Positions 1 to 63,971 of a stretch of DNA of 64,000 nucleotides are shown here, piece by piece; position 1 is the stretch's first letter; each line of letters opens with the position of its first letter. Source of the stretch: an uncultured Verrucomicrobiae bacterium (lineage in GTDB: Bacteria; Verrucomicrobiota; Verrucomicrobiia; Chthoniobacterales; JAATET01); assembly GCA_963719495.1 (NCBI GenBank), contig CAVRCI010000003.1, positions 32,001 to 96,000 on the forward strand. Direction: 5' to 3'. The notes under the pieces are model-generated. The model ran no database searches, was not told where the DNA came from, and saw nothing but the letters and a program-made list of their open reading frames with translations. The translations under genes were made by a program, and so were the position numbers.

Positions 1-510
1 CTGTGCCGTCTCGATGTCACCCTCCTTGATGGCCGCTTCCACCTCGACGAGCAGAATCGCGCCCGCCAGATCCTTGGGCGGTTCGGCGAGGGCTTTCAGT
101 TTTTCGAGAATCTCCCTGGCGGCACGCTGCCCCGGCCGATCCTCCAACAGCGTCCGAGCGTAGGCGACTCCCACCGGTGCGATCTGCGCCGGAGCAAACG
201 CAAGAAATGGCTCCAGCGTCCGCCAAGTCTTCCGCAAACCGTCCAAGCCAGACTGCGCGGGCGCCGCGAGCACCTCGGCCGAATCAGCCGGAAGCGCGAA
301 CTCGATCCCGGCGACCTTGTCCGGAGAATAGGTCGTGGCGACCTCCCCGTATTGCGACGCCTCCACGACCCGCAGCGATCCGGCCCCATCCACGCTGATC
401 CGGCCTTCCTTGGTCGAGCCATCGCTCAAAGTGACGGTCTCCGCCCGACCGCAGACGACCAAAGCCGCGCAGGCGGCGACGAGCACGAATTGCAAGGTCG
501 GCCTACGCAT
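1..510 (-). CDS. Secreted partner protein of the TPR operon (runs off the window edge); paralog of 61776..62702
   Basis: Not in the ORF track. ATG at 510 overlaps the TPR gene end and the frame stays open to base 1: MRRPTLQFVLVAACAALVVCGRAETVTLSDGSTKEGRI...SQYGEV...W..LEPFL...VGVAYARTLLE, which matches motifs in 61776..62702. Confidence 0.85.
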   Translation of the reverse strand, partial: MRRPTLQFVLVAACAALVVCGRAETVTLSDGSTKEGRISVDGAGSLRVVEASQYGEVATTYSPDKVAGIEFALPADSAEVLAAPAQSGLDGLRKTWRTLEPFLAFAPAQIAPVGVAYARTLLEDRPGQRAAREILEKLKALAEPPKDLAGAILLVEVEAAIKEGDIETAQ

Positions 511-3289
511 CGGGAGCCTCCTTGTCGGCGGTCGCGGGTGGGGCGGGCAACTGTTCGAGCCGCTTGCGGGCAAGCGCGTATTCAGGCGTGGCGGCGAGAT
601 CGGAGTTGTCGGTGAGTTCCTTGTAGGTGCGCCACGCCTCGTCCTTCATTTCCAGCTCTTCAAACGCCTGGCCGCTCTCCCAGTAGCTCTGCGCGACGAA
701 TTCCGGCATGCCGCCGTAGAGGATGTAGATGCGCTGGAAGTAGGCGATCGCCTTTTTCGGTTCTCCGACGGCGCGGTAGAGCTTGCCGATGCGGTAGATC
801 GTCTCGGCCTTGAGCTTGCCCTTCGTCGACGGCAGATTGATCAATTCTTCCAGCGCGGCGAGCGCCTGCTCCCGTTCGCCGCGCTCCTCGTAGATGTCCG
901 CGGTTGCGAGCAGAATCCGGGGAGTCAGTGGCGAGCTGGCCGCGACTTTCCGGAAAGTTTCGAAATACTCCAGCGCCCGCTTGTCGTCCCCGTCGGCCCG
1001 GGCGAGAAACCCGAGACCCGCGTAGGCCCGGTCTTTACTCAACGAGAGAGGGTAATACCGGAGCAGGGTGCGGTAGAATTCCGTCGCCTTCTCCGGCTCG
1101 CCCGCGTCCCGTAGGGCGTCGGCGACGTCCGCGAGAACCGGGACGCTCAGGTCCGTGGGGGCGGTATCGGCCGCCGTGTCCAGCAGCAGAGTCCCCGCCT
1201 TCGCGGGATTGGCGGTCCGCAGCATTTGCGCCCGCACCCAGCGGGTCCGGCTGGCGAGGGTGGCCTGCTTTTTGCGGGATGCGTTCGTCGTCAGGCCGTC
1301 CAGCCGGGTAACGAAGTCTTCCTGCTCCTCCCCGGGATACAGGCGGGAGAGATTCATGAGCATGTCTTCGACGGCACCCGCTTCGGGGTCGTTGCCGTAT
1401 TTCTCGACGGCCTCCCAGTAGAGTTTTCGCGCCTCGTCGGGCTGATCGTGCGTGCGGTAGTAGCCCGCGAGTTCGTTGAGCGCCTCGGAGATCCGGGAGC
1501 TGTTGGGACGTTCTTCGACGAATTTCCGGAAATGCGCCGTGAACGTGTCCCATTCCTCCAGGGACTCGTGGATTTTCCCGGCGCGGAACCACGCGTAATC
1601 GTAGAGCCGCTCGTTCGCCAGGGTCACCTGGGAATACACCTCGAGCGCCGATTCCCAATCCCCAAGCGCCAGCCGGGCGTCGCCCAGCAGCGCCAGCGCG
1701 TCGTTGTCGAGCCCGGACCCCGGGTGGGCCTCGAGAAACTCCCGCAACTCCTCGCCCGCGGGTTCAAATTGCTTCTGATTGAACAGGGTCTGCGCCATGC
1801 GGAACTCACTGTCCACGGAATGCGAGCCTTCGGGATATTGCTCGAGGTAGGAGGCGTGCGCCTCGCGGGCAGCCGGATAATCGCCATCGTAAAGCTTGGA
1901 CATCGCGAGCCAATACGCCGAATCGTCCCGGTGCGGGCTCTCCGGGAACGTCTCGGGGTGCGATTCGAGCAGCTCCGCGGCGGCGACGTTCTGATCGGCG
2001 AGGAGCAGGGCGTAGGCCGCCATGAAGTGGGCGCGCGCGGCGTAGGTCGATTTTGGAAATTCCTCCGCCACGCGCAGGAACGCGTCGCTGGCCGGCTCGG
2101 GACGTTTGAGCCGGAGCAGCGCCTCGGCCTTGAGGTAGGCGACGTCCGCACCTTGCTCGGAAGTCGGGTGGCGCTCGAGGAAGGCGTCCGCCGCGTCGAC
2201 CGCTTCCGGCCAACTCTCGGTGCGCGAGAGCGCGATCAACAATTGATAATTCGCCCGCTCCAGCAACTCGCTCTCGGGCAGAGTCCCGAGCATTTCCCGG
2301 TAGACCAGCGCCGCTTCGCGAAACCGATCCAAGTCGAAAAATCCTCCCGCGATCCGAAGCTGGAGCGCGCTGTCGAAATTCTCGATCTTTTCGAAGTCCG
2401 CCAATTCCTTCTCCGCTTGCTTGATCGCCTGCTGCATGGAAGCCGCGACGGCGGCCAGCCGGGGATCCTCGGGCACTTTCTCCTTCACCCCGGCGATCAC
2501 CTCCATCGTCCGCGCAATGATGCGTTCGCGCGGCCAGATCCGCTGGAGGACGAGGATGCCCTCGCGTTTCGACCCCTGCCCGAGCAACTTGTCGCCGAGC
2601 TGGAGCGCGGCGAGTTCGAAGCCCGCCAACGAGAGATTATCCGGCATGGCGGGCTCGTATTGCCGGACGAGTTCGGCGGCCCGTTCGAATTGCTCCGACT
2701 CGACGAGGCTCGCGAGGAGCATCTTGAAGGCCTGCGCTTTCTTGTCCCCGGTCAGCTTGTCCTTGTATTCGTCGAGGACCTCGGTGCCGTCAGCGGCCTG
2801 TCCCGCGCGCATCAAGGAAACCGCCATGAAGATGGCCGCCTGCTGCGCGTTGCCCGAGGTCGGGAAGACTTTGATGAACTCTTTGAACGCCGCGCTGGCG
2901 GCTTCGTTCTGCCCGCTTTGCATCAACCCGATGCCGAGGAAAAACGCCACGTCGTCGCGATTCGGGGCACTCGGGAATCTCGACAAATATTGCTTGGCGG
3001 CCTCAGCCACGCCGGACCAGTTCGCCGTCTTCGCGTTCGCGGTGACGAGCATCAAGTAAGCGCGATCCAGATTCGTCGGCTCCTGGCCGGTCTCGTCCAT
3101 CTGACGCAACGCGCTCGCCAAACGCTCGAGGGCCAGCGGGAAGTTCTGCTGATTGTAGGCCTCGACCCCGGCGTCGAACTCCGCTTCGACCGTGTAATAG
3201 ACTTCGGCTTCTTGCGCCGATAGCGCGTGAACGCTCACGCAGAGGGCAAGAATCCAGCCTAGGAATCGCTTGGAGTTCGGGGGAATCAA
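503..3289 (-). CDS. Large periplasmic tetratricopeptide-repeat protein (BamD/YbgF-like repeats)
   Basis: 928-aa ORF with a signal peptide and many F/Y..P.S...A.Y/F TPR units; paralog of 58891..61779. Confidence 0.9.
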   Translation of the reverse strand: MIPPNSKRFLGWILALCVSVHALSAQEAEVYYTVEAEFDAGVEAYNQQNFPLALERLASALRQMDETGQEPTNLDRAYLMLVTANAKTANWSGVAEAAKQYLSRFPSAPNRDDVAFFLGIGLMQSGQNEAASAAFKEFIKVFPTSGNAQQAAIFMAVSLMRAGQAADGTEVLDEYKDKLTGDKKAQAFKMLLASLVESEQFERAAELVRQYEPAMPDNLSLAGFELAALQLGDKLLGQGSKREGILVLQRIWPRERIIARTMEVIAGVKEKVPEDPRLAAVAASMQQAIKQAEKELADFEKIENFDSALQLRIAGGFFDLDRFREAALVYREMLGTLPESELLERANYQLLIALSRTESWPEAVDAADAFLERHPTSEQGADVAYLKAEALLRLKRPEPASDAFLRVAEEFPKSTYAARAHFMAAYALLLADQNVAAAELLESHPETFPESPHRDDSAYWLAMSKLYDGDYPAAREAHASYLEQYPEGSHSVDSEFRMAQTLFNQKQFEPAGEELREFLEAHPGSGLDNDALALLGDARLALGDWESALEVYSQVTLANERLYDYAWFRAGKIHESLEEWDTFTAHFRKFVEERPNSSRISEALNELAGYYRTHDQPDEARKLYWEAVEKYGNDPEAGAVEDMLMNLSRLYPGEEQEDFVTRLDGLTTNASRKKQATLASRTRWVRAQMLRTANPAKAGTLLLDTAADTAPTDLSVPVLADVADALRDAGEPEKATEFYRTLLRYYPLSLSKDRAYAGLGFLARADGDDKRALEYFETFRKVAASSPLTPRILLATADIYEERGEREQALAALEELINLPSTKGKLKAETIYRIGKLYRAVGEPKKAIAYFQRIYILYGGMPEFVAQSYWESGQAFEELEMKDEAWRTYKELTDNSDLAATPEYALARKRLEQLPAPPATADKEAPDA

Positions 3290-21216: not shown

Positions 21217-23136
21217 ATGAAGAAATCCCCGCTTCCCCTCCTCGCGCTCCTGGCGCTCGCGCCCGCCGTCTTCGCCGCCGACATCGTCTACGAGGCCGAA
21301 GGCCAATCGCGGGTGCGGCCCGTCGCGATGCCGGAGAAGCTCACCAATCCCTGGTCGGACGAACTGGAGAAGGAGTTTTGGACGCGCGCGAACGTCTCCA
21401 TCGACGCCTACGAAGGCAAAGGCTACGGCGGCACCTTCTTCGAGAATGAGAAGCGATCCTACCCGATTGCGATGATGGATTTCCTGGCCGGCAACCGCGA
21501 GAACGCGCTGAAATTTCTCCAAGCGGAGGACGCCGACGCCAAACGCTGGCATGGGCACACGGAGGGCATCGACCTTTTCCCCAGCTTCACGCTCAAGGCG
21601 CAGATGCGGAAGTATTTCTACTTCGGCCAATTCCTCGACGGCGACTACCGCCAGCGCATGAAGAAGGCCTTCGGCAAACTCACTGAAAAGGAGCCTCTGC
21701 GCCGCCCGCACGACGCCTTCGAGGGCGCAGGTGACGGGTGGACGCCCGAGGTGATGAACAGTTGGGTCGACGTGCGCGGCACCGACAACCTGCGCTTCAT
21801 GCGCGACACGTCCGTTTACCTGATGGCCGAGGAGTCGGGCAACGACGAGGTCCGCGACCTCTACCGCGACAAACTCGTCGAGCACGTGCGCGCGATGTTC
21901 ACGATGGGGATGGGCGAATGGGACTCGGAAAATTACCTCGGGCATTCCTTCGAGGCGTGGCTCAACCTTTACGACTTCGCCCAGGACGAGCAGATGCGGC
22001 TGCTCGGGAAAGGTGCGCTGGACTGGATCTCCGCCGCCGCCGCGGTGAAGTATTTTCACGGCGGCTTCAACGGCCCGACCAAGCGCGATTACTACCACAT
22101 GCGGCCCTTCAGCGCGGCGGCTGCCGTGTTCGGTCTCTACTTCGGCGACTCCGCCGCGGAACCCGAGGCCGACTACGACCACGTCTATCTCCTCACCAGC
22201 AACTACCGACCGCCGCAGGCCGTGGTCGGACTCGCCCGCAAGGAATTCGACAAGCCGGTCGAGTTGCAGCTCTCGCACCCCACCTACGAGCACTTCCAGG
22301 AAGGCAAGGACGCCGCGCCGGAATTCTTCGAGTTTCAATTTATCGCCGACACCTGCCAGCTCGGTTCACTGCCGACCGGCAACACCGGCGACGCCAACGG
22401 CCTCAAGCTCATCGCCGTGCACCCGGAGCGCGGTATCGTTTACTTCGTGCCCGCCTCCGGTGAAGCCGGGACCAAGATCACAACCAGCACGAACGGCAAG
22501 GACCACGTCGCGCAAAATCGCAACCTCATCCTCTTTCTCAACGGCGATGGCAAAGCACCGTTCCGGTTTTTCGTTCCCACCGACGCGAAACGCGAAAACA
22601 CCGACGGCGTCACGTTTTTCCAACTTGCGAAGACGTGGATCGCCATCCGCCCCATCGCGATGAAAATCGGCGGCCGCGACGCCGAGGCGACGAAGACCGT
22701 GCAGGAAAAACAGAAATACTCCGAAGCCGAAATCCTCACCGGGGAGGGTAACGGGAAAAATTTCTGCGGCTTCGCGATGGAAGTCGGCGAGAAGGGAACG
22801 CACGGCGACTACGGCAAGTTCAAGCGGGCCGTGCTCGAGAAGTCCCGCGTCGACCTCGACCGCCTCGACGACGGCGCGGCTGAATTCACCGGTGCCAACG
22901 GCGACACCGTCCGCATCCAGATCAACGCCGACGGCCTGCCCACCGTCTGGCGCAACGGGAAGGAACACGACTGGAAAGCCCACTGGGCGCCCTACCAGCC
23001 GACCGACGGCGGCAACGCCCCCATCCGCGAAGAATGGAAGAGCGGCAAACTCCACGTCGAGGCGGGCGCACACACCTTCGAGGGCCGGATCGACGAAGCC
23101 GGGCACTACACCTTCACGAACGAACGAGCGAAGTGA
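21217..23136 (+). CDS. Secreted hypothetical protein, probably with an alpha/alpha-toroid lyase (heparinase-like) architecture
   Basis: Signal peptide; GTDNL..M and GMGEWDSENY motifs; helical N-half and beta-rich C-half. Confidence 0.75.
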   Translation: MKKSPLPLLALLALAPAVFAADIVYEAEGQSRVRPVAMPEKLTNPWSDELEKEFWTRANVSIDAYEGKGYGGTFFENEKRSYPIAMMDFLAGNRENALKFLQAEDADAKRWHGHTEGIDLFPSFTLKAQMRKYFYFGQFLDGDYRQRMKKAFGKLTEKEPLRRPHDAFEGAGDGWTPEVMNSWVDVRGTDNLRFMRDTSVYLMAEESGNDEVRDLYRDKLVEHVRAMFTMGMGEWDSENYLGHSFEAWLNLYDFAQDEQMRLLGKGALDWISAAAAVKYFHGGFNGPTKRDYYHMRPFSAAAAVFGLYFGDSAAEPEADYDHVYLLTSNYRPPQAVVGLARKEFDKPVELQLSHPTYEHFQEGKDAAPEFFEFQFIADTCQLGSLPTGNTGDANGLKLIAVHPERGIVYFVPASGEAGTKITTSTNGKDHVAQNRNLILFLNGDGKAPFRFFVPTDAKRENTDGVTFFQLAKTWIAIRPIAMKIGGRDAEATKTVQEKQKYSEAEILTGEGNGKNFCGFAMEVGEKGTHGDYGKFKRAVLEKSRVDLDRLDDGAAEFTGANGDTVRIQINADGLPTVWRNGKEHDWKAHWAPYQPTDGGNAPIREEWKSGKLHVEAGAHTFEGRIDEAGHYTFTNERAK

Positions 23137-23150
23137 ACCCACGGCTTGCC

Positions 23151-24731
23151 ATGACTATCTCCCGACCCCTCGTCCTCGCCACGGCGGCGGGAGCGCTGTT
23201 CTCGTTCACCACCCTCCCCCTGCGGGCCCAGAACGATCCCTTCACCGAAGTCCAGGTGAACGTCCTGCCGAAGAAGGGGATGAAGTTCGATCCGCTGGCG
23301 ATCTACCGCGAGGATCAGGCCGTGTTGCAGGGCGCGTTTGGCACGAGCGCGGACGACACGGTCACCGATTTGGCGACGCTCCCCGACGGACGCGTCCTGG
23401 CCATCGGGACGCTCGGCGCGCCCGCCGAGGCGGCGAAGCGTTTTCCCGTCACGATGGCGGACGGGGTCGGCGCGACGGGATCGGCGTTTCTCGCGGTCTT
23501 TGATCCGACCTTCCGCCAGATGGAGCGGCTGGTTCCGCTTCCCAAGGACATCACGCGCCCCGCGTGCATCCGGGTTGCCCCGGACGGCACGGTGTTTGTC
23601 GGCGGCGATGCCGCGGCTGTGGACCGCCTCGCCGTGATGAAATTTTCGCCAGCTCTCGACGTCATGCTCTGGCGCGCCGACGCGGTTGGTGACCGCATGA
23701 CCGGCCTCGCGCTCATGCCCGACGGCTCCGTCGTCGTCGCCCCGGATCAAGCGCCCTTCATCTCACGCATCCGCGCCGACGGCGGTGGCCTCATTCCGTT
23801 CGGGAACGAAAAACACTTCCGCGTGGATGGGGCCAATCCGCAGGTGGCGGACAAATACTGGGGCGGCAACGGCTACTCGGACCTCGGATATCGCGGCTGC
23901 ACGTATCAGCGAGGCGGCTCCGGCGGGATCGGCGTGACCGCGGACGGCAACCTCGTCTTCTTCACGAGTAATTTCGTGAGGCTGCCCGACGGCAGTCCGG
24001 ACTTCGATCCGATGCTGCTGAAGTTCACGCCGTCCGGCGAATTACTCTGGGCCAGGAACCTGCTCCAGGGCCTGCCATCCCCGTCGGACCAGAAGTCGCC
24101 CTACCTCACCGTCGATCCGCACTCAGGCGATCTGCTGCTCACCCTACGCCAGCACGGAAGCTTTGCGAACAACATGGCCGTCGGTCCGCAAGCCTACCTC
24201 ACCACGGAATCCTGGCTCACCGGCAACATCATGATCGGCTGGATCGCCCGGGTCGACGCGGGCACCGGCGACGTGAAAGCGGGCACGATGTATTTCCCCG
24301 ACATGGGCCGGCCGCCGAAGGGCGGGAAGCGCACCGCGAACTCGCTCTTCCCCTCCGCCGTGCGCGCCGACGCGGCCGGTCGCATCTACGTGACTGGTGC
24401 GACGGCCTACAAGCTCACCACCACCCGGCACGCCTTTCAGCCCGAGCCGCTGGGCGGCAGCGGATTCCTCACCGTCTTCGATCCCGATCTTTCGCGCGTC
24501 CTCTACGCGAATTTGCTCACAGGTCAGGGATTCAACCTCCAGGGAACGGCGCTCACGGTGACGGACGGCGGCCCGATCGTCGCGGCCGCTCTCAAGCGCG
24601 GCGCCAAACCACCCTTCGGATTCGTGGCGGCCAACGCGGAGAAAACCGACTTTCTCTCGCCCGAACCGACGGGCGAAAAAGACGCGATGCTCTCGCTGTT
24701 CCCCTCCCAAACGTGGTTCGCCGAAGACTGA
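23151..24731 (+). CDS. Secreted beta-propeller (SBBP-like repeat) protein
   Basis: Signal peptide; DAAGRIYVTGAT...TT..AFQ and GFLTVFDPDLS..LYA repeats. Confidence 0.8.
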   Translation: MTISRPLVLATAAGALFSFTTLPLRAQNDPFTEVQVNVLPKKGMKFDPLAIYREDQAVLQGAFGTSADDTVTDLATLPDGRVLAIGTLGAPAEAAKRFPVTMADGVGATGSAFLAVFDPTFRQMERLVPLPKDITRPACIRVAPDGTVFVGGDAAAVDRLAVMKFSPALDVMLWRADAVGDRMTGLALMPDGSVVVAPDQAPFISRIRADGGGLIPFGNEKHFRVDGANPQVADKYWGGNGYSDLGYRGCTYQRGGSGGIGVTADGNLVFFTSNFVRLPDGSPDFDPMLLKFTPSGELLWARNLLQGLPSPSDQKSPYLTVDPHSGDLLLTLRQHGSFANNMAVGPQAYLTTESWLTGNIMIGWIARVDAGTGDVKAGTMYFPDMGRPPKGGKRTANSLFPSAVRADAAGRIYVTGATAYKLTTTRHAFQPEPLGGSGFLTVFDPDLSRVLYANLLTGQGFNLQGTALTVTDGGPIVAAALKRGAKPPFGFVAANAEKTDFLSPEPTGEKDAMLSLFPSQTWFAED

Positions 24732-25523
24732 ACTCAAACGGGGAGAGGACGTCTCGTCCTCTCGATCCAGACGTGAGGACGAGACGTCCTCACTCCGCTT
24801 ATCCGACTACCTCGTGGGCGGCAGATCGGTCGTCGAGATCGCCACGTCGCGGATCCCCACCACCCCGCGACCAAGCAACCGGATGGCGAAAAAGACGCAA
24901 TGCTCTCGCTGTTCCCCTCCCAAACGTGGTTCGCCGAAGACTGAACTCAAACGGGGAGAGGACGTCTCGTCCTCTCGATCCAGACGTGAGGACGAGACGT
25001 CCTCACTCCGCTTATCCGACTACTTCGTGGGCGGCAGATCGGTCGTCGAGATCGCCACGTCTCGGATCCCCACCACCCCGCGACCAAGCAACCGGATGGC
25101 GAAAAAGACGCGATGCTCTCGCTGTTCCCCTCCCAAACGTGGTTCGCCGAAGACTGAGCTCAAACGGGGAGAGGACGTCTCGTCCTCTCGATCCAGACGT
25201 GAGGACGAGACGTCCTCACTCCGCTTATCCGACTACTTCGTGGGCGGCAGATCGGTCGTCGAGATCGCCACGTCGCGGATCCCCACCACCCCGCGACCAA
25301 GCAACCGGATGGCGAAAAAGACGCAATGCTCTCGCTGTTCCCCTCCCAAACGTGGTTCGCCGAAGACTGAACTCAAACGGGGAGAGGACGTCTCGTCCTC
25401 TCGATCCAGACGTGAGGACGAGACGTCCTCACTCCGCTTATCCGACTACTTCGTGGGCGGCAGATCGGTCGTCGAGATCGCCACGTCTCGGATCCCCACC
25501 ACCCCGCGACCAAGCAACCGGAT
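24672..25523. repeat. Tandem repeat, 4 x 213 bp, spanning the 3' ends of two convergent genes
   Basis: CCGAAGACTG recurs at 24721, 24934, 25147 and 25360; each unit has a 17-bp perfect inverted repeat (first copy 24745-24761 / 24775-24791). Confidence 0.97.
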
Positions 25524-27614
25524 GAATAGCCTGCCCCCACTGGAACGCGGATACTCGCCCTTCGGCACGACGGCTTCGTAGGAGATCCAAGCCCCCGCCG
25601 GCATCGGGACCAACGGCGGAAAGACCACGAGATTGCGCCCCCGCGCTTTCTTCCCCTCGTAATAGGCGGTGTCGTATTGCACTTCCAGCCGTGTGAATTG
25701 ACCTTCGACCCGGATCTGGAACGCCACCCGGAGGTTTTCGTCCACCGTCGCGGCCGCTTCCCGCCGACCGTCGGCGGCAAAAAACGCAAACCCAACCCCC
25801 TGCCCGAAGGAAGTGACCCCGTCGCGCGGTCGGCGAAAGACACTGTGCCGCGCCGGATCGTGCCAGCTCTGCACGAACGTGGCCCCAAGGCCGGGATCGC
25901 CCGCGGTGGCGGGGATCACCTGAAAGAGGTCGAACGGAACGGGCGCGACCCCCCACGAGGCCGAAAGGCCGGGCAGACCGTCGCGCCGCCCCGGATCGAA
26001 CAAGCCCTCCGGTGGGTTCTCCGGATCCCAGGACGGCATGAGCCCAAAAGCCACGTCGGGACGGTTCGGGAAACCCGAACTGTTCTGACTGCTCCCACCC
26101 TGCTGCGTGAAGTAGCGCGAGGCATCCGCCGTCCCGCCCGCCGCCTTGTTCGCCGTGGGCACGGCGCAGAAGCTCACGTCGAGCGGCAGGGCCAGCTTCG
26201 ACACCGGTTCGGCGGCGGTGCTCCGCACCGGGGTGGGCGCGCCAAACTCGACGGCCCCTTTCGCCGTTCCGAGCGCGTAGAAGATCCGCCCGTCCGGGCT
26301 CGACCAGATGAGATCCACGATCCCGTCGGCGTTCCAATCGCAGGGCTGCGGCGCGCAGTAGGCGAGAAAAGCCGAGTCCTTCGTTCCCTCGAACGTGATC
26401 ACCTTCGAGTCGGTCATCGGCGTTTCGCCACTGGTCCAGCGCCCCTCCGCATTCGGGAAAACGGTGAGCAATCCCTCGCTGTCGTTCACGAACAGGTCGA
26501 AGTGCCCGTCGCCGTCCCAATCTGCCGCAAACGGAGCGAGAAACGTGCGCTCGCCACCCACCATGAGCAACTGCTCGCGGGGTTGACCGGTCGAACGGGA
26601 GGGGAACGTAAACAGCCGGATGGCGTTCACCGAATAGGTGCCTTCACCAACGAGAATGTCCCGGAGGCCGTCGCGGTTCCAGTCCACGACGAACGGCGTC
26701 GCGTAGTTCATGAACGCCACCGGCTCGTTCGTCGTCTTTCGGGTGACCAGGCTGTGCTGCGGCACGAGCTTGAGCACGATCCGATCATTGCTCTTCGAGT
26801 AGGTGCGGAAATCCGGCGCGCCGGGACGCCCGCCATTCAGCGCCAGATAAAGATTTCCCTGCGCGTCGCCCGCGACGAAATCCGCCATCCCATCCCCGTT
26901 CCAATCGCACGGCGCGGCCACGGCGCGCAGTTGCCGGTAGCCGTTGAGAACCGCCACCGTTGCCCCCGCCTCGCCGTCGGCCGCAACTTCCTCCCACGGA
27001 TACGGCAGCCCGGCTTCGGCCTCCTCCTCGATTTCGTCGTCGGCGCGCTGCTGGGCCGATGATCGTGATTTGTTCTCGCGTTTCAGCCGCTCGAGCGCGT
27101 CCTCGCGCTGCTTATCGATCCGTTCCTTCTGCCGCTCCTCGTTCCGCGTGAGCTGCTTTTTTTCCGTTCCCTCCAGTGTGATCGCGCGGAAGGTCGAGCG
27201 CTCGTTGTCGAGGAGGAGCGGCATCACCTCGCCGACGCCAAAGGCGGGCGAGCCGGGCGAGCCAACGTTTTTCCAAAACCAGAAAAACCCCGCGCCATCC
27301 GGCGACACCAGGTCCGGAAGGTTGTCGCCATCGAGATCGACGAGCGAAGCCGAGTGTCCCATCGGCGCGTAGGCAAACTGATTGCTCTTGTCGACGTGCA
27401 TGTTCACGCCCTCCACCGCCACCGATTTCCGCAACCAGCCGTACGCATCCACCCCCAACCACGGATACACCGCCTCGACCGTGCGCTCGAACCGTCCGTT
27501 CGCGAGGAAGTTCTCCCCGCTCATCCCGTCCATACTGCCGTTCCCCTGCGCCCAGGTGCCCCCCGCCGCCAACGCCAACGCAATGAGGCCGAAAATACCC
27601 CCGCGGACGCTCAC
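25446..27614 (-). CDS. Secreted FG-GAP/VCBS repeat protein
   Basis: GTG 27614 overlaps the vapC stop; signal peptide; five D-W/L-N/D-x-D-G/N-x-x-D repeats. Confidence 0.88.
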   Translation of the reverse strand: MSVRGGIFGLIALALAAGGTWAQGNGSMDGMSGENFLANGRFERTVEAVYPWLGVDAYGWLRKSVAVEGVNMHVDKSNQFAYAPMGHSASLVDLDGDNLPDLVSPDGAGFFWFWKNVGSPGSPAFGVGEVMPLLLDNERSTFRAITLEGTEKKQLTRNEERQKERIDKQREDALERLKRENKSRSSAQQRADDEIEEEAEAGLPYPWEEVAADGEAGATVAVLNGYRQLRAVAAPCDWNGDGMADFVAGDAQGNLYLALNGGRPGAPDFRTYSKSNDRIVLKLVPQHSLVTRKTTNEPVAFMNYATPFVVDWNRDGLRDILVGEGTYSVNAIRLFTFPSRSTGQPREQLLMVGGERTFLAPFAADWDGDGHFDLFVNDSEGLLTVFPNAEGRWTSGETPMTDSKVITFEGTKDSAFLAYCAPQPCDWNADGIVDLIWSSPDGRIFYALGTAKGAVEFGAPTPVRSTAAEPVSKLALPLDVSFCAVPTANKAAGGTADASRYFTQQGGSSQNSSGFPNRPDVAFGLMPSWDPENPPEGLFDPGRRDGLPGLSASWGVAPVPFDLFQVIPATAGDPGLGATFVQSWHDPARHSVFRRPRDGVTSFGQGVGFAFFAADGRREAAATVDENLRVAFQIRVEGQFTRLEVQYDTAYYEGKKARGRNLVVFPPLVPMPAGAWISYEAVVPKGEYPRSSGGRLFIRLLGRGVVGIRDVAISTTDLPPTK

Positions 27615-28054
27615 TCGAATCCCGCCACATCCAGGACGCGCAGCCCGACCTTCTCCGCGAGAATCCGTTGGCGGGCATCGAAGCTGATAAAAATCTCCGG
27701 TTCCAACTGCGCGGCACACGCGACGTGCAACACATCCAACGTCCGGCAACCCAGCTCCGGAGTGTGGGCGGAGAATTGCCGAAAGGACTCCATCAACGCC
27801 AAGCGGTCGATCTCTGGAAAATAGTAGAACCCTTGGTGTTTCCGGCGCTGGAAGAGCGCGATCTGCCCGTCCGCGTCCGTGACGCTGATATCGTTCCAAA
27901 AGACCTTGAGTCGCAACGCGTTGATCAACTCCGCTTCCTGTAATTCCCAGACCGGCAGCGGATCGTCCTGACCGACGACCAGCCGCTCCAACCCAACCGA
28001 ACCCGTCTCGAGCAGGTAAAGTTTGATCAGGGCGCTGGTGTCGAGATAGATCAC
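27611..28054 (-). CDS. vapC: Type II toxin, PIN domain (VapC family)
   Basis: IYLDTSALIKLYL.E, RTLDVLHVACA and FISFD.RQ motifs. Confidence 0.92.
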   Translation of the reverse strand: MIYLDTSALIKLYLLETGSVGLERLVVGQDDPLPVWELQEAELINALRLKVFWNDISVTDADGQIALFQRRKHQGFYYFPEIDRLALMESFRQFSAHTPELGCRTLDVLHVACAAQLEPEIFISFDARQRILAEKVGLRVLDVAGFE

Positions 28055-28284
28055 CAGCGGCCCTCGCGGTCGGCTCGCACGGTTTCAGCCCCGGATCGAC
28101 CCTTGCAGCGAAGAGCCGTTGCCAGGTGGTCCTCCCACTCGAGAATCTTTCGCGGCCCGGCGGGGACGAGTCTGACGGCGGGCTTGCCGCGATTGGAGAC
28201 TTCGAAGATCTCACCCTGCTTGACCCGCGCCTCGATAGTCGACCAATGCGCTTTCATCTCGCGAACCGAAATTGTCGTTATCAC
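28051..28284 (-). CDS. Type II antitoxin, Phd/YefM family
   Basis: ISVREMKAHWS...V.QGE...VSNRGKPAVRLVP; overlaps the toxin start. Confidence 0.9.
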   Translation of the reverse strand: MITTISVREMKAHWSTIEARVKQGEIFEVSNRGKPAVRLVPAGPRKILEWEDHLATALRCKGRSGAETVRADREGRW

Positions 28285-28391: not shown

Positions 28392-30341
28392 TCACAGCTT
28401 CCCCCCCTGCTGATTAAGGATCGTGGGCCAGCGGCCGAGCATGTAGACGAGGATGTTCGACGCCAGCGCGTAAGAGTTGCGGATGTTGCCGTCGTCGATG
28501 CCGCGGAAAAACTCATCCCGGTAATCCCACATGAGATTCACCCACCGCCCGCGCCCATCACTGCCGCCGATCTGGAAGGCATTGTTGACGAGCGTCATGT
28601 CGTAACGCAGGAAATTCCCGTAGGCGTTCTTCGTGAGCACCACCGACACGACCCCGGGCCGGATCTCGATCACCTCGATGGGCGACTGGTAATACTGCAT
28701 CCCGGGCGGCAGCTCCGCGAGGTCGAAGTAGGCGTCCTCGCCGCTCAGGAACGTCGTGTCACGCCCCCGCAACGGGTGAAAATCCTTGTCCACGTCGGGA
28801 ATCACGCGCCGCATCTCGCGGCGAAACGCGACGTTGAATTTCGACCCCTCGCCCGCGAAGCCCGAGTCGCCCCAGATCGCGCCGCCGCGCAACACGTATT
28901 GAAAGAGCGTGTCCACCTCCGTCTCCGTGAGCGTGAAATCGTCGTTCCCGGTGAAGTAGATGAACGGCGGCATCGGCTTCACGTCGAGCAGGTATTCGAC
29001 GAGAAAATCCGTGCTCTCCGGATTGCCCGGCTCGGGGTTCCAGATGTATCCGCGCATCGAATAAAAATCCCCGCCCGGCAGGTTCTCCCGCAGCTTCGTG
29101 CGCAGGGCCTCGCGCCCCTCCGCGTTCCACGTCATCGTCTTCGACGCCTTGTCGTAGGTGTAGGGCACCAGCTTCGGATCGAGCACCACGGCGGTCGGTT
29201 TACGCCGACCCTTGATCGCGTCGTTCGACGCCGCGCGCAGAAATTGCAGCATGTTCGACATCGCCCCCGGCGTGAATTCCCACAGCGCGCCGCGGGCATC
29301 GGTCGTCTTCCCATTCACGTCGCGATACCCCCAGCCGTAGCTGATGAACGGCCCCGTCGTCGGATCGAAGTCGGACTGCTGCTCGTAGAGTTTGTAATTC
29401 CCGTCCGAGCTGTCCGGCAGTCCGACGGCGGATTTTTCGATCTGCCGCCCATTGTCCGCCCGCCGCCAATCGAGCGCCGCGTACCAGTCGCCGGAGTGGA
29501 TGACGAAGTAGCAGGAAAATTCGTTGATCGTCTTGAGCGTTTTCCCGCGGCCCGAGATGCCGATACCGCCCTCGCCCGACCCGATCCATTCCCGCAGTCC
29601 CTTGCCCAGGCCCGATCCTTCGCCGAAGCCACTGGACACCCCGCCGCCCCCGCCGCCCACCACGCTCGAAGATGGAGCCGGCGGTCCGCCGCCCACGACC
29701 GGCGCCGCCACGCTGAACTGCAGCGGGCTCGCTTGCGCGGCCATCGTCGTGATCGCCGTGAACATCGCGTCCGTCTGCATCGCTCCCACCACCACCGACA
29801 CCTGGGGGTCGAACGTGGGCGCGCCCCCGCTCGCCGAACTGCCCGGCGGCGACGCCTCCACGGAAGGCTCCAAAAATCCGTCGTCCGTCGCCTCGAAGTC
29901 GGATTTCTCAGTCTGCAACGGTGCCAGCACGACCAGAAACAACGCCACGACCACACCCGTATGAAACAGGATCGATATGCCTATGGGGCGGGACGCCCGC
30001 AGGCGATCCACCCACCCGACGGGTGCCGCCGGCACCTCCGCGGCTCGCGCGATGAACCCACACTCGACCTCGCCGAAACTGATCCGGTCCCCCCGCCGCA
30101 ATCTCACCGGATCGACGACGCGATCCCCGTTCACCATTGTCCCATTCGTCGACCCCAGATCCTCCAGCACCACCGCGCCGTCCTCGCCCCGCGTGATCCG
30201 CGCGTGGCGCGACGAAACCGACGAATCGTCGAGCACGATGTCGTTGTCCGACGTGCGCCCGACCGTCGCCTCCCCGACTTTCAACGGGACATCCTGGGTC
30301 GGCGAATCTGGAAAATCGAAACTCAGGAAAAAATCAGCCAC
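28392..30341 (-). CDS. FHA domain + single TM (SxxxH) + P/G/S-rich linker + DUF4159-like domain protein
   Basis: VGR, SVSSRHA and DLGSTNGT (FHA); GISILFHTGVVVALF; PFIYFTG..DF.LT..E...L..Y..RGG.IWGD (DUF4159-like). Start GTG 30341 chosen from the promoter position. Confidence 0.85.
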   Translation of the reverse strand: MADFFLSFDFPDSPTQDVPLKVGEATVGRTSDNDIVLDDSSVSSRHARITRGEDGAVVLEDLGSTNGTMVNGDRVVDPVRLRRGDRISFGEVECGFIARAAEVPAAPVGWVDRLRASRPIGISILFHTGVVVALFLVVLAPLQTEKSDFEATDDGFLEPSVEASPPGSSASGGAPTFDPQVSVVVGAMQTDAMFTAITTMAAQASPLQFSVAAPVVGGGPPAPSSSVVGGGGGGVSSGFGEGSGLGKGLREWIGSGEGGIGISGRGKTLKTINEFSCYFVIHSGDWYAALDWRRADNGRQIEKSAVGLPDSSDGNYKLYEQQSDFDPTTGPFISYGWGYRDVNGKTTDARGALWEFTPGAMSNMLQFLRAASNDAIKGRRKPTAVVLDPKLVPYTYDKASKTMTWNAEGREALRTKLRENLPGGDFYSMRGYIWNPEPGNPESTDFLVEYLLDVKPMPPFIYFTGNDDFTLTETEVDTLFQYVLRGGAIWGDSGFAGEGSKFNVAFRREMRRVIPDVDKDFHPLRGRDTTFLSGEDAYFDLAELPPGMQYYQSPIEVIEIRPGVVSVVLTKNAYGNFLRYDMTLVNNAFQIGGSDGRGRWVNLMWDYRDEFFRGIDDGNIRNSYALASNILVYMLGRWPTILNQQGGKL

Positions 30342-30350
30342 GCGCCACGC

Positions 30351-30403
30351 AGAATGCACCAGACGATCCCCCGATCAAACCAACGCCGAAATGTACGCGT
30401 AGA
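30351..30403 (-). promoter_or_regulatory. Site TGTACGCGTAGA (30392-30403) plus -10 CATTCT
   Basis: The -10 begins at 30356, 36 bp from the site edge. Confidence 0.75.
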
Positions 30404-39812: not shown

Positions 39813-39817
39813 GTTGT

Positions 39818-45037: not shown

Positions 45038-45039
45038 TC

Positions 45040-45540: not shown

Positions 45541-45555
45541 TGGGGGGACGCCGTC

Positions 45556-45619: not shown

Positions 45620-45670
45620 GCCCAGCCCCCGGGGTTCCGACCGACGACCCGCATCCCTCCCGCCGCCGGT

Positions 45671-58890: not shown

Positions 58891-61779
58891 ATGCCACGCC
58901 CCCCCGACGGCACCGTGCTCGAGTCAGATTTACATTCCCGCGACCGGGGACGCGGCCCGGTATCCACGCTCGTTCGGGTGGCCGTGATCGCCGCCGCGAT
59001 AGCGACGGTGAGCACCGGACGAATGGAAGCGCAGCCGAGTCCGGCGGACGGATTGGATGCCGGGTGGGCCAGCTACCAGAGCGGAAAGTTTCCGGAAGCG
59101 GCTGCGAGTCTGGAAAAATTCACCGCCGAGCAGAGCGGCAATGCGGCGTATCTCGGCGTGTTCAAGCGCGTCACCTACCTCCTGGCGTTGTGTTACGTGA
59201 AGACGGAGGACTGGGCGAAGGTCCACGACGCCGTCGAGCGCTTCGCGAAGGCCACCGGGGAGGGTCAGCCAGGATGGGAGGACGAGTTGACATTCTGGAA
59301 TGGCGTGGCGCTCGTGAAGACCGGCGAGCCCGCCGCCGGGCGCGAGGCGTTGCTGGCTTTCTTGAAGTCGAATCGGGACCCGGCCAAGCGGTTCCCCGCC
59401 ATTCTGCTCGTCGGATCGGCCTACACCGCGGAAGGAAAGTCAGCCGAAGCCGCCGCCTTTTACGCGCAAGCCGGAGCCTCGCTGCCGACCATGGATGCCG
59501 CCCGGCTCCGAATGCTCGAGTTGGACTCCTACGTTGCCGCCGACGATCTGCCCGGCGCGATCGCCGCGGCGGATCGCGGCTTCGCGGTGCTCGACGAGAT
59601 GCCGCAAGTCGTCGCGTTTCAACTCCTCGCGCTGCAATTGGCCGAGAAACTGATCGAGGCCGATCGGGTCCGCGAAGCCATCGCGATCCTGCTGCGGATC
59701 GGATCACGCGAGGAATTGCTGGCTCTCCAGCAGCAGCGCATCGATCAACTCGCACCGCGGATCTCCGCCTCGACCGCCGGTGACCCCGGCCTCGCCGCGC
59801 TTTCCAAGCTCTCGGAGAGCGTGAAATCCGACGCCGCGAGGCTCGCGGACGTCCCGGATTTCGACTCGATGGTGCGCTTCCGCCTGGCCTCCGCTTTCCT
59901 TCGTCTGAAACGCTACAACGAGCTGACATTCATCTTGAGCGGGATGCTCGCCGACCTTCCGGCCGACGCGATCAACGAGCAGGCGTCCGACACGCTCGTC
60001 CGCTCCTACATGCAGGTCGGACGATGGCCGCGGGTCGTCGAGACGGCCCGTGCCTTCCGCGAAAAGTTCCCCAACTCGGCATCGCTCCCGGGCGTCATGC
60101 TGCTCGAAGCCCAGGGGCTGCAGGAACAAGGGAAGCTCGACGAGGCCGAGAAGGCGTTCGGTGAATTGGTCGAAAAATTCCCCCAGGACGATCTCACCCC
60201 GGAGGCCACATTTCTGCGGGCATTCAACGACATGCTGCGCGAGGAATTCGAATCCGCCATCGCGCAGTTCCAAGCCATCGCCCAGGACGAATCCGACACC
60301 GCGACCGCGGAGAAGGCGATGTTCTGGACCGCCGAAGCCGAATCGATGCGCAAGGCACCGGACGCCACGATCACCGCCGCCGACGCCTATCTGGAGAAGT
60401 ATCCGCGGGGCGAATACGCACCGGACGCTCTCTATCGGAAGGCATTCGCCCTCCACGCGCTGCGCGACTACGAGGCCAGCGTCCCGCTACTCGAGACCTT
60501 CCTGAAGCAAAATCCCGGCCACACCTACGCCGGCGAGGCGCTCCTCCTGAAAGCCGACGCCGCGCTGGCCCAGGGCGATACCAAGGCCGGGCTCGCCCTG
60601 CTGGCGTCGGTCGCACCGGGTCCGTATTACGAAGAGGCGCAATTCCGCACCGCCAAGGTCCATCGGCTCGCCGAGGACCACGACGCGCTGCGCGAGCACC
60701 TCGAGAAGTTCGTCTCGAACAATCCAGCCAGCGCCCGCCTGGCCGAAGCGGTCTATTGGATCGCGTGGAGCTGGCGCGACGACCCGGCGAAGCAAAACGC
60801 AGCTTACTGGACGGCCATCGACCGTTTCGGCAACGATCCCGCCCAATGGGGCGTTCAGGAAATCCTCCAAGGCCTCATCAAGGCCAACGGAGGCGAGGAA
60901 GCGAAGCAGGAGCTGGCGGAGAAATTCCGCCAGGAAAGTCGAAAGGCCGAACTCGCCAAAAAGCGCTCGCTCGATCTTCAGCTCCGCTGGGCCCAGGCGG
61001 AATTGATTCGCAAATCGGACCCCGGCGCCGCCCGCCAGCTTCTCGTGGACTCCGCGCCATTCCTCGATCCGGCCCGCGACAATCCGCAGATTCTCGTCGC
61101 CGTCGCCGACGCCCTCCGTGCCGCCGGGAAGCGACCCGAGGCCAGCGCGCTCTACGCCGACATCCGGCGATGGAACCCCACCTCGACGGCCAACGACCGC
61201 GTCTTCGCTGCGCTGGGCGGGATGTCCGCCGAGGACGGGGACTACGCGAAAGCGCTCGAATATTTCGACCGCTTCGACCGCGAGATCCCGTCCTCCGCGC
61301 TGCGAGCCGAGATCGGGCTTGCCTCCGCCAACGCCCTCGTCGAACTCGAGCGCTACGACGAGGCGATCCAGAAAATCGAGACGCTGCTCGATACGAAGTC
61401 CGCCCCGAAACGCCTCAAGGCCTCGGCGCTCGTCGCCCTCGGTCGGATCGAGATCACCCGCGGCGAACCCCGCCGCGCGGTCGCCCCGCTGCAACGGGTT
61501 TACGTCCTCTATGGCGCCTACCCGGAACTCGCCGCGGAGGCCTACGTCGAAACCGCCAAGTCGCTCGAGAAACTGGACGACCCACTCGGCGCTGCCCGCA
61601 CTTACCTCGAGTTTCTCGAGACCGGCCGGCTGGATACGCCCGCGACGAAAGCCTTCGTCGCCGAAGCTCGAAAAAATTTGGCCGACATCCCCGCAGCGAC
61701 GCGGACCGAGGCCGAGGCGCAGAACCGTGCCGCGGCCGAAGCCGTCGCCACGGCCAGCGTGGGGGGGGCGGGGTCATGA
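58891..61779 (+). CDS. Large periplasmic TPR protein, paralog of 503..3289
   Basis: TPR repeats; shared FDS....R.A..F and QR.Y.LYG..PE..A..Y...A.RTY motifs; start uncertain. Confidence 0.9.
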   Translation: MPRPPDGTVLESDLHSRDRGRGPVSTLVRVAVIAAAIATVSTGRMEAQPSPADGLDAGWASYQSGKFPEAAASLEKFTAEQSGNAAYLGVFKRVTYLLALCYVKTEDWAKVHDAVERFAKATGEGQPGWEDELTFWNGVALVKTGEPAAGREALLAFLKSNRDPAKRFPAILLVGSAYTAEGKSAEAAAFYAQAGASLPTMDAARLRMLELDSYVAADDLPGAIAAADRGFAVLDEMPQVVAFQLLALQLAEKLIEADRVREAIAILLRIGSREELLALQQQRIDQLAPRISASTAGDPGLAALSKLSESVKSDAARLADVPDFDSMVRFRLASAFLRLKRYNELTFILSGMLADLPADAINEQASDTLVRSYMQVGRWPRVVETARAFREKFPNSASLPGVMLLEAQGLQEQGKLDEAEKAFGELVEKFPQDDLTPEATFLRAFNDMLREEFESAIAQFQAIAQDESDTATAEKAMFWTAEAESMRKAPDATITAADAYLEKYPRGEYAPDALYRKAFALHALRDYEASVPLLETFLKQNPGHTYAGEALLLKADAALAQGDTKAGLALLASVAPGPYYEEAQFRTAKVHRLAEDHDALREHLEKFVSNNPASARLAEAVYWIAWSWRDDPAKQNAAYWTAIDRFGNDPAQWGVQEILQGLIKANGGEEAKQELAEKFRQESRKAELAKKRSLDLQLRWAQAELIRKSDPGAARQLLVDSAPFLDPARDNPQILVAVADALRAAGKRPEASALYADIRRWNPTSTANDRVFAALGGMSAEDGDYAKALEYFDRFDREIPSSALRAEIGLASANALVELERYDEAIQKIETLLDTKSAPKRLKASALVALGRIEITRGEPRRAVAPLQRVYVLYGAYPELAAEAYVETAKSLEKLDDPLGAARTYLEFLETGRLDTPATKAFVAEARKNLADIPAATRTEAEAQNRAAAEAVATASVGGAGS

Positions 61780-62702
61780 GCGCGTTCATCCACCGCTTCC
61801 CGATCCGCCGGACGGCTTCGATCTGCCTGGCGATCTTCGGACTCGCCGCGCAACCGCTCCGGGCGGACGTGACTGGCGACGTGATCCAGCTCGCATCCGG
61901 GAAGGAAGTGCAGGCGCGCGTGAGCGGTCTCGACGGCGAAGCTCTCACCCTCATCCGCAAGACCCAATACGGAGTCGTCACCGAGCGGCTTCCGTTGGAT
62001 CAGGTGCGAGCCGTCAAGTTCGCCGACGAGGAACGCCTCGCCGCCGACCTTCCGAAGCTGACCGACCGCGCGCGACTCGAGCAGCTCTGGAATGCCCGCA
62101 AACCCTTCCTGCCCATTCCGGAATCGATGGCCGGAGCCGTCGGTCTGCGCTTCGCACGGGTGCTCCTCGATTCCACCAAACCCGCCGACGCCCAGCTCGC
62201 GGAAGGCGTTCTGGATGACGTCGAGGAGAAGGACTGGAGCAAACCCCGCCGCGCCGACGCCTCGGGCCTGCGCTTCGAGGCTCTCCTGAAATCCGGGGAC
62301 GAAGCGACCGCGCTCGCCCGGGCCGAGGAGGCTCTCGCGCGCAAGGACCAGCCCCGCATGCGGTCCGACGCGAGCTACTTTCTCGCCAATCGGGCGATCA
62401 ACGAGTTCCTCGAGCTGCTCGCCGAGAACCCGCGGTGGAGTCAGGACCCCTTCGTCCGGCCGGAGCGCGACCGCCTGTATTACACCGCGATCGACCTGCT
62501 TCTCATCCCGTATCTCGAGGACGGCTCCTCCCCGGAGACGGCGTCCCGGAGCGTCTGGCGGCTCTCCGAATTCTACGCCGAAGCGGGCGAAACCGAGGCC
62601 GCCCGCTCGAGCGCACAGGACGTCGTGACCATTTTTAGCTCCACCCCCGAGGCGAAACTCGCCGAGAAATATCTGACCACATCCGAAAAAACCGAACCAT
62701 GA
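61776..62702 (+). CDS. Secreted partner protein (N-terminal beta domain plus TPR-like helices)
   Basis: ATGA overlaps at both ends; signal peptide MSAFIHRFP...LAAQPLRA. Confidence 0.85.
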   Translation: MSAFIHRFPIRRTASICLAIFGLAAQPLRADVTGDVIQLASGKEVQARVSGLDGEALTLIRKTQYGVVTERLPLDQVRAVKFADEERLAADLPKLTDRARLEQLWNARKPFLPIPESMAGAVGLRFARVLLDSTKPADAQLAEGVLDDVEEKDWSKPRRADASGLRFEALLKSGDEATALARAEEALARKDQPRMRSDASYFLANRAINEFLELLAENPRWSQDPFVRPERDRLYYTAIDLLLIPYLEDGSSPETASRSVWRLSEFYAEAGETEAARSSAQDVVTIFSSTPEAKLAEKYLTTSEKTEP

Positions 62703-63532
62703 ACGCCCACCTCTCTCCCCTCCGCCCCCCCCTCCGAGCCCTGCTCTACGCGAGTCTGCTGACAATCGCGATCTCCGCGTCGTCGCACGCGCAGGAGCCC
62801 GCCGCCACGCCTCCCCCCCCGCCCGCCGTCGCCGAGAAGTCGCTGCTCGACCTCTACGCCCAGGGTGGCTTGCTCATGCATTTCATCCTCGTCTGCTCGA
62901 TGGGGACGATCACCGTCGGCATCTACTGCGCCCTGCAGATCAATCGACGGAAAATGCAACCAGCCGCGCACATCGGCGCCCTCACGCAGTTCATGCAGTC
63001 ACGCGACGTCGGAGGAGCCTACGAATTCTGCCAGCAGCACCCGAATGCCTACACGAACACCGTTTCCGCCGCGCTTCTCAAGGTGAATTTCGAGCGGGAA
63101 CTGGCCAACAAATTTTCCATGGAGCAGGCCGCCGCCGAGTCGCTCGCCGAGGTCGAGACCCGGAGCATGGTCTGGGTGAACTACCTGAACGTGTTTGCCA
63201 CCCTCGCGCCGATGCTCGGGTTGCTGGGGACGGTGACGGGCATGATCCAAAGTTTCGACCAGCTCGCAGCCGGACGCAGCGAGCCGGCGGACCTCGCGGG
63301 GGGCATCGGGCAGGCCATGCTCACGACCGCGGGCGGTCTCATCGTCGGTATCCCGGCCATGTTCCTGTATTTCTTCTTCCGGAACCAATTGCTCATCGTC
63401 GTGACCGAGATTCAGAAATCCGTGACCTTCCTGATCGATATTCTCAGCGGGGAATTGAAGCTCGAGGGAGCGGTCGACCCCGCGGCGACGACCGAGCCGC
63501 CGCCGGAGCAGCAGCCCTCGGAGGAAGCCTGA
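62699..63532 (+). CDS. exbB: MotA/TolQ/ExbB proton channel protein
   Basis: APMLGLLGTVTGMIQSF and LAGGIGQAMLTTAGGLIVGIPA. Confidence 0.93.
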   Translation: MNAHLSPLRPPLRALLYASLLTIAISASSHAQEPAATPPPPPAVAEKSLLDLYAQGGLLMHFILVCSMGTITVGIYCALQINRRKMQPAAHIGALTQFMQSRDVGGAYEFCQQHPNAYTNTVSAALLKVNFERELANKFSMEQAAAESLAEVETRSMVWVNYLNVFATLAPMLGLLGTVTGMIQSFDQLAAGRSEPADLAGGIGQAMLTTAGGLIVGIPAMFLYFFFRNQLLIVVTEIQKSVTFLIDILSGELKLEGAVDPAATTEPPPEQQPSEEA

Positions 63533-63560
63533 TCACCGTGCATCCCGCCGCCGCCCCCCG

Positions 63561-63971
63561 ATGAAAATCGAACGTCGTTCCAGCGGAAAGCCGGGCTTCA
63601 TGCTCGCGCCCATGATCGACATGACCTTTCTGCTGCTCATCTTCTTCATGGTCACCACGAAGATCAGCAAGGATAAGGTCAATCTCGAGATCGCCCTGCC
63701 TACCGCGGCCAACGCCGTGCGACCCGATGACCTCACGAACCGCGACATCATCAACATCGACAGCGCGGGGAACTATTTCATCTCCAACGACCCGATGACC
63801 AAGGAGTCGCTGCGAGCCTACCTCGTGAAACGATTTGAAAACTACCCACCGCTCCGTCTCTACGTCCGCGCGGACCGCAATACGCCCAGCAAACAAATCA
63901 AGGAACTGATGCGCCTCGCCGCCGAAGCTGGAGCCATCGACGTCATCTTCGGCAGCTACGAGAAGGAATGA
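63561..63971 (+). CDS. exbD: ExbD/TolR biopolymer transport protein
   Basis: LAPMIDMTFLLLIFFMVTT (conserved Asp) and VRADR.TP. Confidence 0.93.
   Translation: MKIERRSSGKPGFMLAPMIDMTFLLLIFFMVTTKISKDKVNLEIALPTAANAVRPDDLTNRDIINIDSAGNYFISNDPMTKESLRAYLVKRFENYPPLRLYVRADRNTPSKQIKELMRLAAEAGAIDVIFGSYEKE

Follow-up and report, generated by a model that had tools for sequence, protein, structure and literature searches.

A candidate FHA- and DUF4159-bearing arm of a Ton/Tol-type motor in a pectin-type locus of an uncultured verrucomicrobial bacterium

The TonB-ExbBD and TolA-TolQR systems of Escherichia coli have a three-part arm with a Ser-x3-His anchor and a serine in helix 1 of ExbB (PMC12215075, PMC10907165), and cryo-electron microscopy places TonB His20 in contact with ExbB Ser34 (PMC12215075). 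In Myxococcus, GltG unites FHA, a helix and a TonB-C domain, and two-hybrid tests showed it to bind AglR (PMC3169522); in a later model its helix-adjacent FHA domain is docked on the AglR ring with the AglQ/AglS heterodimer (PMC11761067). In bacteria of the Planctomycetes-Verrucomicrobia-Chlamydiae group, His-anchored vWA arms follow TPR-tolQ-tolR-tolR genes (Williams-Jones et al. 2025, PMC12204202). Here we describe a candidate arm encoded at 28392-30341 of a 64,000-nucleotide stretch (the window; positions 32,001 to 96,000 of contig CAVRCI010000003.1) in the genome of an uncultured Verrucomicrobiae bacterium (GCA_963719495.1, the host genome). The protein is likely an arm of the TonB/TolA/GltG type, belonging to an ExbB-ExbD-ExbD' proton motor, with a head that would act on a secreted FG-GAP protein bearing a module like a carbohydrate-binding module (CBM), probably in polysaccharide acquisition. 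We give this reading a probability of about 0.55; both the motor contact and the partner contact are predicted from sequence.

The arm resembles each of these systems, and it is not TonB, TolA or GltG by membership. Like GltG with AglR-AglQ-AglS, it has a predicted cytoplasmic FHA domain before a single helix, a long disordered periplasmic linker and a globular head, and in both cases the motor has one TolQ/ExbB-like and two different TolR/ExbD-like subunits, with TPR proteins in the locus. However, GltG has two FHA domains and a TonB-C-like end, whereas the arm has one FHA domain, a DUF4159 head and an FG-GAP partner. The NCBIfam gliding_GltG profile gave 41.7 bits (cut-off 650) over residues 27-96 only, that is, the FHA part, and other Glt genes were not seen, with no search aimed at them. 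The vWA arms share with the arm the conserved-His helix, the disordered linker and a non-TonB head, which in the arm is DUF4159; their motor box has a candidate counterpart in the arm. They lie downstream of TPR, tolQ-like and two tolR-like genes; so do some members of the arm's family, but not the arm gene itself, and FHA-bearing copies do so at 0/8 loci. Neither the FHA domain nor the FG-GAP partner is named in section 8 and one supplement of that source (PMC12204202). In contrast to E. coli TonB and TolA, the arm has no TonB_C head or polyproline rod, ExbB Trp38 is not conserved and the two ExbDs differ; unlike TonB/Tol systems, the arm's genome has no match to a TonB-dependent receptor or to TolB_N. 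Arm plus propeller recalls TolA-TolB, and compared with a Tol-Pal locus the arm's neighbor is an FG-GAP propeller.

The open reading frame encodes 649 residues without internal stops and divides as follows.

28392..30341, minus strand: arm gene, with FHA domain, transmembrane helix (S-x3-H), linker and enlarged DUF4159 head (open reading frame, Pfam, model)
30042..30326, minus strand: FHA domain spanning about residues 6-100, expected to be cytoplasmic, with G28-R29, S43, H46 and N66-G67 intact (Pfam, GarA alignment)
29925..29990, minus strand: single transmembrane helix, residues 118-139 (model helix; pLDDT, the per-residue model confidence, 82-88)
29961..29975, minus strand: candidate motor-docking motif S123-x3-H127 (SILFH), residues 123-127 (alignment of relatives)
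29871..29900, minus strand: candidate motor box D148-F149...F156 after the helix (conservation; position compared with the TonB D-box, PMC10907165)
29607..29921, minus strand: disordered Gly/Ser/Ala-rich linker, about 105 residues (pLDDT < 50 over 155-236; composition)
28434..29522, minus strand: DUF4159 head, residues 274-636 (Pfam, alignment, tree, structure match)

Pfam assigned FHA to residues 26-90 (E 2e-23) and DUF4159 to residues 459-582 (E 1e-9). In an AlphaFold2 model computed on 41 sequences (mean pLDDT 79), residues 1-100 form an FHA sandwich and 118-139 a lone helix; residues 155-236 are disordered, and a folded head starts at about residue 245. An earlier note, made from the letters of this DNA, had placed SILFH (29975-29961) within a single membrane helix, with an FHA domain before it and a DUF4159-like C-terminus after it, and the profiles, the model and the match of the head to 4i66 bear this out. 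Because basic residues precede the helix and acidic ones come after it, the FHA domain would lie inside and the head outside. The modeled head has the same fold as Hoch_4089 (PDB 4i66; DUF4159, PF13709), with Z 21.7 and a root-mean-square deviation of 2.4 Å over 199 aligned residues; unlike Hoch_4089, the arm is membrane-anchored and carries about 125 residues of conserved inserts (about 290-357 and about 388-450), by which the head of the long form of the family exceeds that of the short form. A search of the ESM Atlas gave matches to DUF4159 clusters only. Longer fused forms of the head were sought among proteins of 722-2060 residues and not found, which is weak evidence. DUF4159-like stretches also occur inside open frames of 1,600-2,300 residues in four genomes (G007, G158, G251, G392); DUF4159 is therefore found in very large proteins too.

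The segment after the helix had been described as a TonB-like Pro/Gly/Ser linker. It is indeed long and disordered, and residues 141-245 are rich in Gly (17%), Ser (14%) and Ala (12%), but Pro amounts to 10%. Since the figures for the two TonB_C proteins of the host genome are 21% and 38% Pro, the linker of the arm is not a TonB-type polyproline rod.

Evidence for a motor arm comes from the helix. Among the 41 first aligned proteins 38 span it, with S-x3-H in 30 and A-x3-H in 8. In a wider alignment of relatives His127 was present in 88/88 and position 123 was Ser in 68 and Ala in 20, while other helix positions vary; where the full SHLS motif has its last Ser, the arm has Val138. The box after the helix was conserved as well (D 62/88, F 71/88, F 61/88). 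This DF...FL box sits where TonB has its ExbD-binding D-box, although the alternating pattern of E. coli (PMC10907165) is not followed. The view that the His is invariant in the whole family was dropped, as 10/12 family genes from more distant genomes (L160-L171), still within motor operons, have Tyr instead; the conservation of SxxxH expected in the earlier note thus holds among the closer relatives, with Ala accepted at the first position, and gives way to Tyr in most of the more distant ones.

The change in the arm is accompanied by one in the cognate ExbB. His arms were paired with a Ser in ExbB helix 1 in 19/19 operons. Where the arm has Tyr, the ExbB residue was Ala, Leu or Met, together with a new Trp two residues on, in 8/8 operons; one ExbB was truncated, and that of locus L007 was not picked up. 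By alignment to a TolQ-like protein of the host genome with S-x3-W, the helix-1 Ser of the cognate ExbBs corresponds to ExbB Ser34. Because the Tyr arms form one clade, the switch is a single event. The proposal of the earlier note that the protein is a force-transducing arm of ExbB/ExbD thus finds support in the conserved motif, in the operon position of relatives and in the His/Ser to Tyr/non-Ser switch, which together point to a motor arm. With the Tyr clade (L160-L171), nature thus offers a variant form of the docking code of Ton/Tol systems.

The arm family has a short form of about 430 residues without FHA, and a long form that is set apart on the tree by a branch whose support is 100. 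The tree was a quick search only, and P0014 and P0025, labeled FHA-less, have truncated FHA domains, so that change counts on it are overstated. The homologue search returned 39 long-form proteins, and among 401 sampled genomes the host genome (G000) was the only one with a long form. The neighborhoods of the short form were collected as 145 loci, some of them near-copies. Where the flank reached at least 1 kb, exbD was the immediate upstream neighbor in 16/106 loci; the immediate downstream neighbor was an FG-GAP gene in 15/118. Of the 96 loci with both flanks, 14 had exbD and FG-GAP, 1 had exbD only and 81 had neither; a short form placed after exbD was thus followed by an FG-GAP gene in 14/15 cases. 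The order exbB-exbD-exbD-arm-FG-GAP was found in 11/12 regions from the phylum sample, and the 14/401 genomes with a strong arm match (E below 1e-80) were the same 14 as those with a strong FG-GAP match (E below 1e-45), five other genomes matching more weakly in each search. The FG-GAP gene followed the long form in 10/10 loci. Two FHA-less long forms (L003 and L007) each share an operon with exbB-exbD-exbD-TPR-TPR, and their motor subunits have the motors at the window edges as best matches, narrowly so for ExbB. Tandem duplicates of the short DUF4159 arm were seen at L012, L028, L031, L037, L045, L051 and L075.

The surroundings of the arm gene contain the following features.

25446..27614, minus strand: conserved partner gene, 722-residue FG-GAP propeller protein, predicted secreted, whose C-terminal module is CBM-like (Pfam FG-GAP; downstream of the long form in 10/10 loci)
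23133..24731, plus strand: NHL-like propeller protein, a frequent companion of the long form (weak Pfam NHL; homologue in 6/7 long-form genome loci)
28051..28284, minus strand: Phd/YefM antitoxin, lying between the genes for arm and partner (Pfam match under the cut-off, E 1.6e-4)
27611..28054, minus strand: PIN-domain toxin of the inserted pair, its stop overlapping the GTG start of the partner (Pfam E 1.8e-4, just below cut-off)
30392..30403, minus strand: locus palindrome, minus-strand TCTACGCGTACA, a candidate operator (overlaps a weak sigma-70-like -10 match)
58891..63971, plus strand: candidate motor operon TPR-TPR-exbB-exbD, which continues beyond the end of the window with another exbD and a T-x3-H arm of its own (palindrome at 58722)
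503..3289, minus strand: large TPR gene heading a second candidate motor operon (palindrome at 3345)

The partner gene, which the earlier note had missed, begins with a signal-peptide-like sequence. The C-terminal part of its product has a weak profile match to the hyaluronate-lyase domain 4d0q (E 0.0017), a domain that we take to be a carbohydrate-binding module. No relationship was detectable between the FG-GAP family and the NHL-like propeller. The toxin-antitoxin insertion separates arm and partner in the window and in L001, and is absent from L002-L007. Between the converging NHL-like and FG-GAP genes (24672-25524), a 213-bp unit that takes in the 3' end of the NHL-like gene is repeated in tandem, its four copies being 98% alike.

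Two TPR-TPR-exbB-exbD-exbD operons bracket the window, each with the palindrome upstream. That of the TPR gene at 503..3289 continues just before the window start with exbB-exbD-exbD and an S-x3-H vWA arm. The own arms of the two motors are this vWA protein (C3:28830-29867, by Pfam) and a protein without Pfam family (C3:96416-97597), by eye presumably PA14-like. The host genome, 98.6% complete, encodes 10 ExbB and two TonB_C proteins (PF03544; on C11 and C1), and the window holds no TonB_C protein. The earlier note was correct that no conventional TonB lies in the window, but its argument that the protein should for this reason be the arm of the motor there is weak: since both window-edge motors have arms of their own just outside, His-anchored in each case, the absence of TonB does not single it out. 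Apart from the arm described here, His-anchored arms end four exbB-exbD-exbD operons, the two just named among them (C3:96416-97597, C3:28830-29867, C11:56283-57332, C2:607338-608531).

Nevertheless, the two co-regulated window-edge motors are the likeliest partners of the arm, because FHA-less long forms share operons with that motor type and both operons carry the same palindrome. The alternative is the motor on C13; in all, the genome has five motors of the PVC type, two on C3 and one each on C2, C11 and C13. The short system of the host genome is scattered (motor on C13, arm on C15, FG-GAP on C8), and the C13 ExbB was the best match for 12/12 ExbBs of short-form operons (45-52%). As a partner of the long form the C13 motor was weakened, since the L003 and L007 subunits match the window-type motors best. 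An exbB gene was found on the same contig, 30-50 kb away, in G401 and at one G402 locus.

In the favored explanation the helix of the arm would dock on the Ser of ExbB helix 1 and the box after the helix would engage the ExbD pair. Rotation of the motor would reel in the linker, and the DUF4159 head would bind, and then pull or release, the FG-GAP protein, by analogy with TolA and TolB. Most likely, the copy in the window would borrow the two co-regulated motors that lie about 30 kb to either side.

Alternatively, the arm may have left the motor altogether and act as a membrane-tethered scaffold or sensor, its Ser-x3-His helix being inherited baggage or binding something else. No motor gene stands beside any FHA-bearing copy, the linker is flexible and low in proline, and the window-edge motors already have arms, all of which would fit. 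On the other hand, His and Ser/Ala are kept in 38/38 helix-bearing long forms while neighboring helix positions vary freely, the dispersed short forms keep them too, and FHA-less long forms are found in motor operons. We regard such a loss of the motor as highly unlikely.

The FHA domain of the arm aligns residue for residue with that of GarA, and R29, S43, H46 and N66 are intact; Arg and Ser at these motifs are phosphothreonine-binding residues in Agrobacterium Fha (PMC3953482). Together with four Ser/Thr kinases above the Pfam cut-off in the host genome, and the cytoplasmic tail of the C13 ExbB (L078:2040-2999; C13:6539-7498), this speaks for a doubtful variant in which the same motor arm would be switched when FHA binds a phosphothreonine that a Ser/Thr kinase has made, for instance on the motor's cytoplasmic tail. 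The C13 tail is a Thr-containing CxxC...CxxC zinc ribbon (weak Pfam match, below cut-off) that is kept in many cognate ExbBs. Fusions of zinc ribbon and FHA are frequent elsewhere, which makes this tail a candidate partner of the FHA domain.

The distribution of the domain argues in the opposite direction. The 39 long forms comprise 23 with an FHA profile match, 12 with a short N-terminus without FHA, 3 with the N-terminus missing and 1 with a remnant, and on the family tree FHA is patchy. The pocket was intact in 10/15 long forms covering the three positions (Arg, Ser, Asn), and 5/15 had lost Arg, Ser or Asn, against 19/184 degenerate and 165/184 intact among control FHA domains, which were picked by likeness to the query and therefore lean towards intact. 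In 7 partly covered long-form FHAs the Asn was absent from all 7. No kinase was among the genome's matches on the window's contig, and kinase genes were seen in 4/155 loci, none of them among the 10 long-form loci. Moreover, the FHA domain of PrgH functions without the phosphothreonine-binding residues (PMC3635987), and that of GltG was modeled as motor docking (PMC11761067). Gating by Ser/Thr kinases, as advanced in the earlier note, is supported by the intact pocket of the arm but not beyond it. With many long forms lacking FHA or carrying a degenerate one, the domain is optional for the family, probably as a cytoplasmic docking module; phosphothreonine binding is possible in the arm, but the family as a whole does not depend on it.

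Genes for GH28, pectate-lyase-like, GH29, esterase, ABC and SSF proteins abound in the window, and long-form loci are repeatedly placed among glycosidase-like genes. As the earlier note stated, the arm gene carries the candidate operator: YTACRCGTA occurs at 30402-30394, about 50 bp upstream, and the palindrome also precedes the arm orthologue in L001. In the window the motif matches 17 times, at 11 sites, where 0.22 matches would be expected, and the window's contig holds 17/39 of the matches genome-wide. The TTTACGCGTAAA-type palindrome lies upstream of many genes of the locus (3345-58731), with four further sites clustered at C2:678412-697746. A gene with a LacI-type sensor and an AraC part is present at 16161-17276.

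The four genomes checked (G401, G402, G403, G404) all keep a short form beside the long one, and for this reason the copy in the window looks like a specialized second version, with enlarged head, enlarged partner and an extra propeller, in a pectin-type locus.

Instead of serving glycan uptake, the output of the arm could be envelope upkeep or the assembly of surface proteins, either Tol-like or for the Verru_Chthon pseudopilin cassette and PEP-CTERM proteins of the window. The core operon neighbors are SurA/PPIase (peptidyl-prolyl isomerase) and SH3 genes, arm and propeller recall TolA-TolB in a genome without a TolB_N match (Pal was not searched for), and cassette-like genes flank L004 and L006. 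However, the palindrome of the long form is common to glycan-use genes, the partner has a CBM-like module, long-form loci recur among glycosidase-like genes and the long copy looks specialized beside the retained short copy. An envelope role thus appears rather unlikely. The cassette itself lies at 39186-45780, with the same palindrome at 45609, and PEP-CTERM genes are also present in the window; both are consistent with Verrucomicrobiota, the phylum to which relatives assign the genome. Cassette-like genes flank one C2 motor operon in addition to L004 and L006.

Several observations weigh against the favored explanation of a motor arm acting on glycans. With regard to the motor, the fetched flanks held no motor gene at any of the FHA-bearing long-form loci (0/8), and exbB was not among the same-contig matches listed for the other three loci, including those of G403 and G404. 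The short forms with both flanks covered stood apart from motor and partner genes in 81/96 cases. The agreement of the 14 genomes was obtained with thresholds chosen after the matches had been seen, and 10 of the 14 belong to one family. The His/Tyr switch, being confined to one clade, counts as one event; in 3/8 of the Tyr-type ExbBs the preceding residue is a Ser, and none of the 27 cognate ExbBs has Trp at the equivalent of Trp38, which joins Ser34 in the E. coli contact. The linker is Gly/Ser-rich, flexible and low in proline, and a disordered domain II abolished the native function of TolA/TonB chimeras (PMC12204202). As for the output, the glycan role is taken from the gene neighborhood only, and the neighbors of the core short-form operon are housekeeping genes, the SurA/PPIase gene for example.

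An FHA domain on a motor arm (Myxococcus GltG) and non-TonB heads (vWA arms, 2025) are kinds already known. What is new is an FHA-bearing, enlarged second copy that lies in a pectin-type locus and in a genome where no TonB-dependent receptor was detectable; neither PF00593 nor PF07715 (receptor barrel and plug) matched anywhere in the host genome, a search by which divergent receptors could be missed. Ten ExbB-type motors, a large pectin-type locus and no detectable TonB-dependent receptor raise the question of how glycans pass the host envelope. MUL1, a mucin-uptake locus of Akkermansia, has been described as resembling the Sus system (PMC13174399). In the literature searched, which left subscription journals and bioRxiv supplements outside, DUF4159 was found in the Pfam database paper only, and no account was found of FHA with TonB/ExbB, or of an ExbB/ExbD/FG-GAP system, in Verrucomicrobia.

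The arm suggests a path for force, from the motor through the His127 helix and from the DUF4159 head to the FG-GAP/CBM partner, which would give DUF4159 its first concrete role. The switch from His/Ser to Tyr/Ala-Leu-Met bears on the specificity between arms and motors. If FHA does gate the arm, kinase signaling would be tied to a Ton/Tol-type motor, and GltG raises the same question. The strongest version, a receptor-free, proton-driven verrucomicrobial glycan machine in which ExbB-ExbD-ExbD' pulls through the DUF4159 arm on FG-GAP/CBM and FHA, in this lineage, makes it the first transducer of the Ton/Tol type to be under the control of Ser/Thr phosphorylation, is in our view improbable as a whole.

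Finally, a 42-bp duplicated element was noted at 12323-12407, and a similar stretch lies in the intergenic region near 51850.

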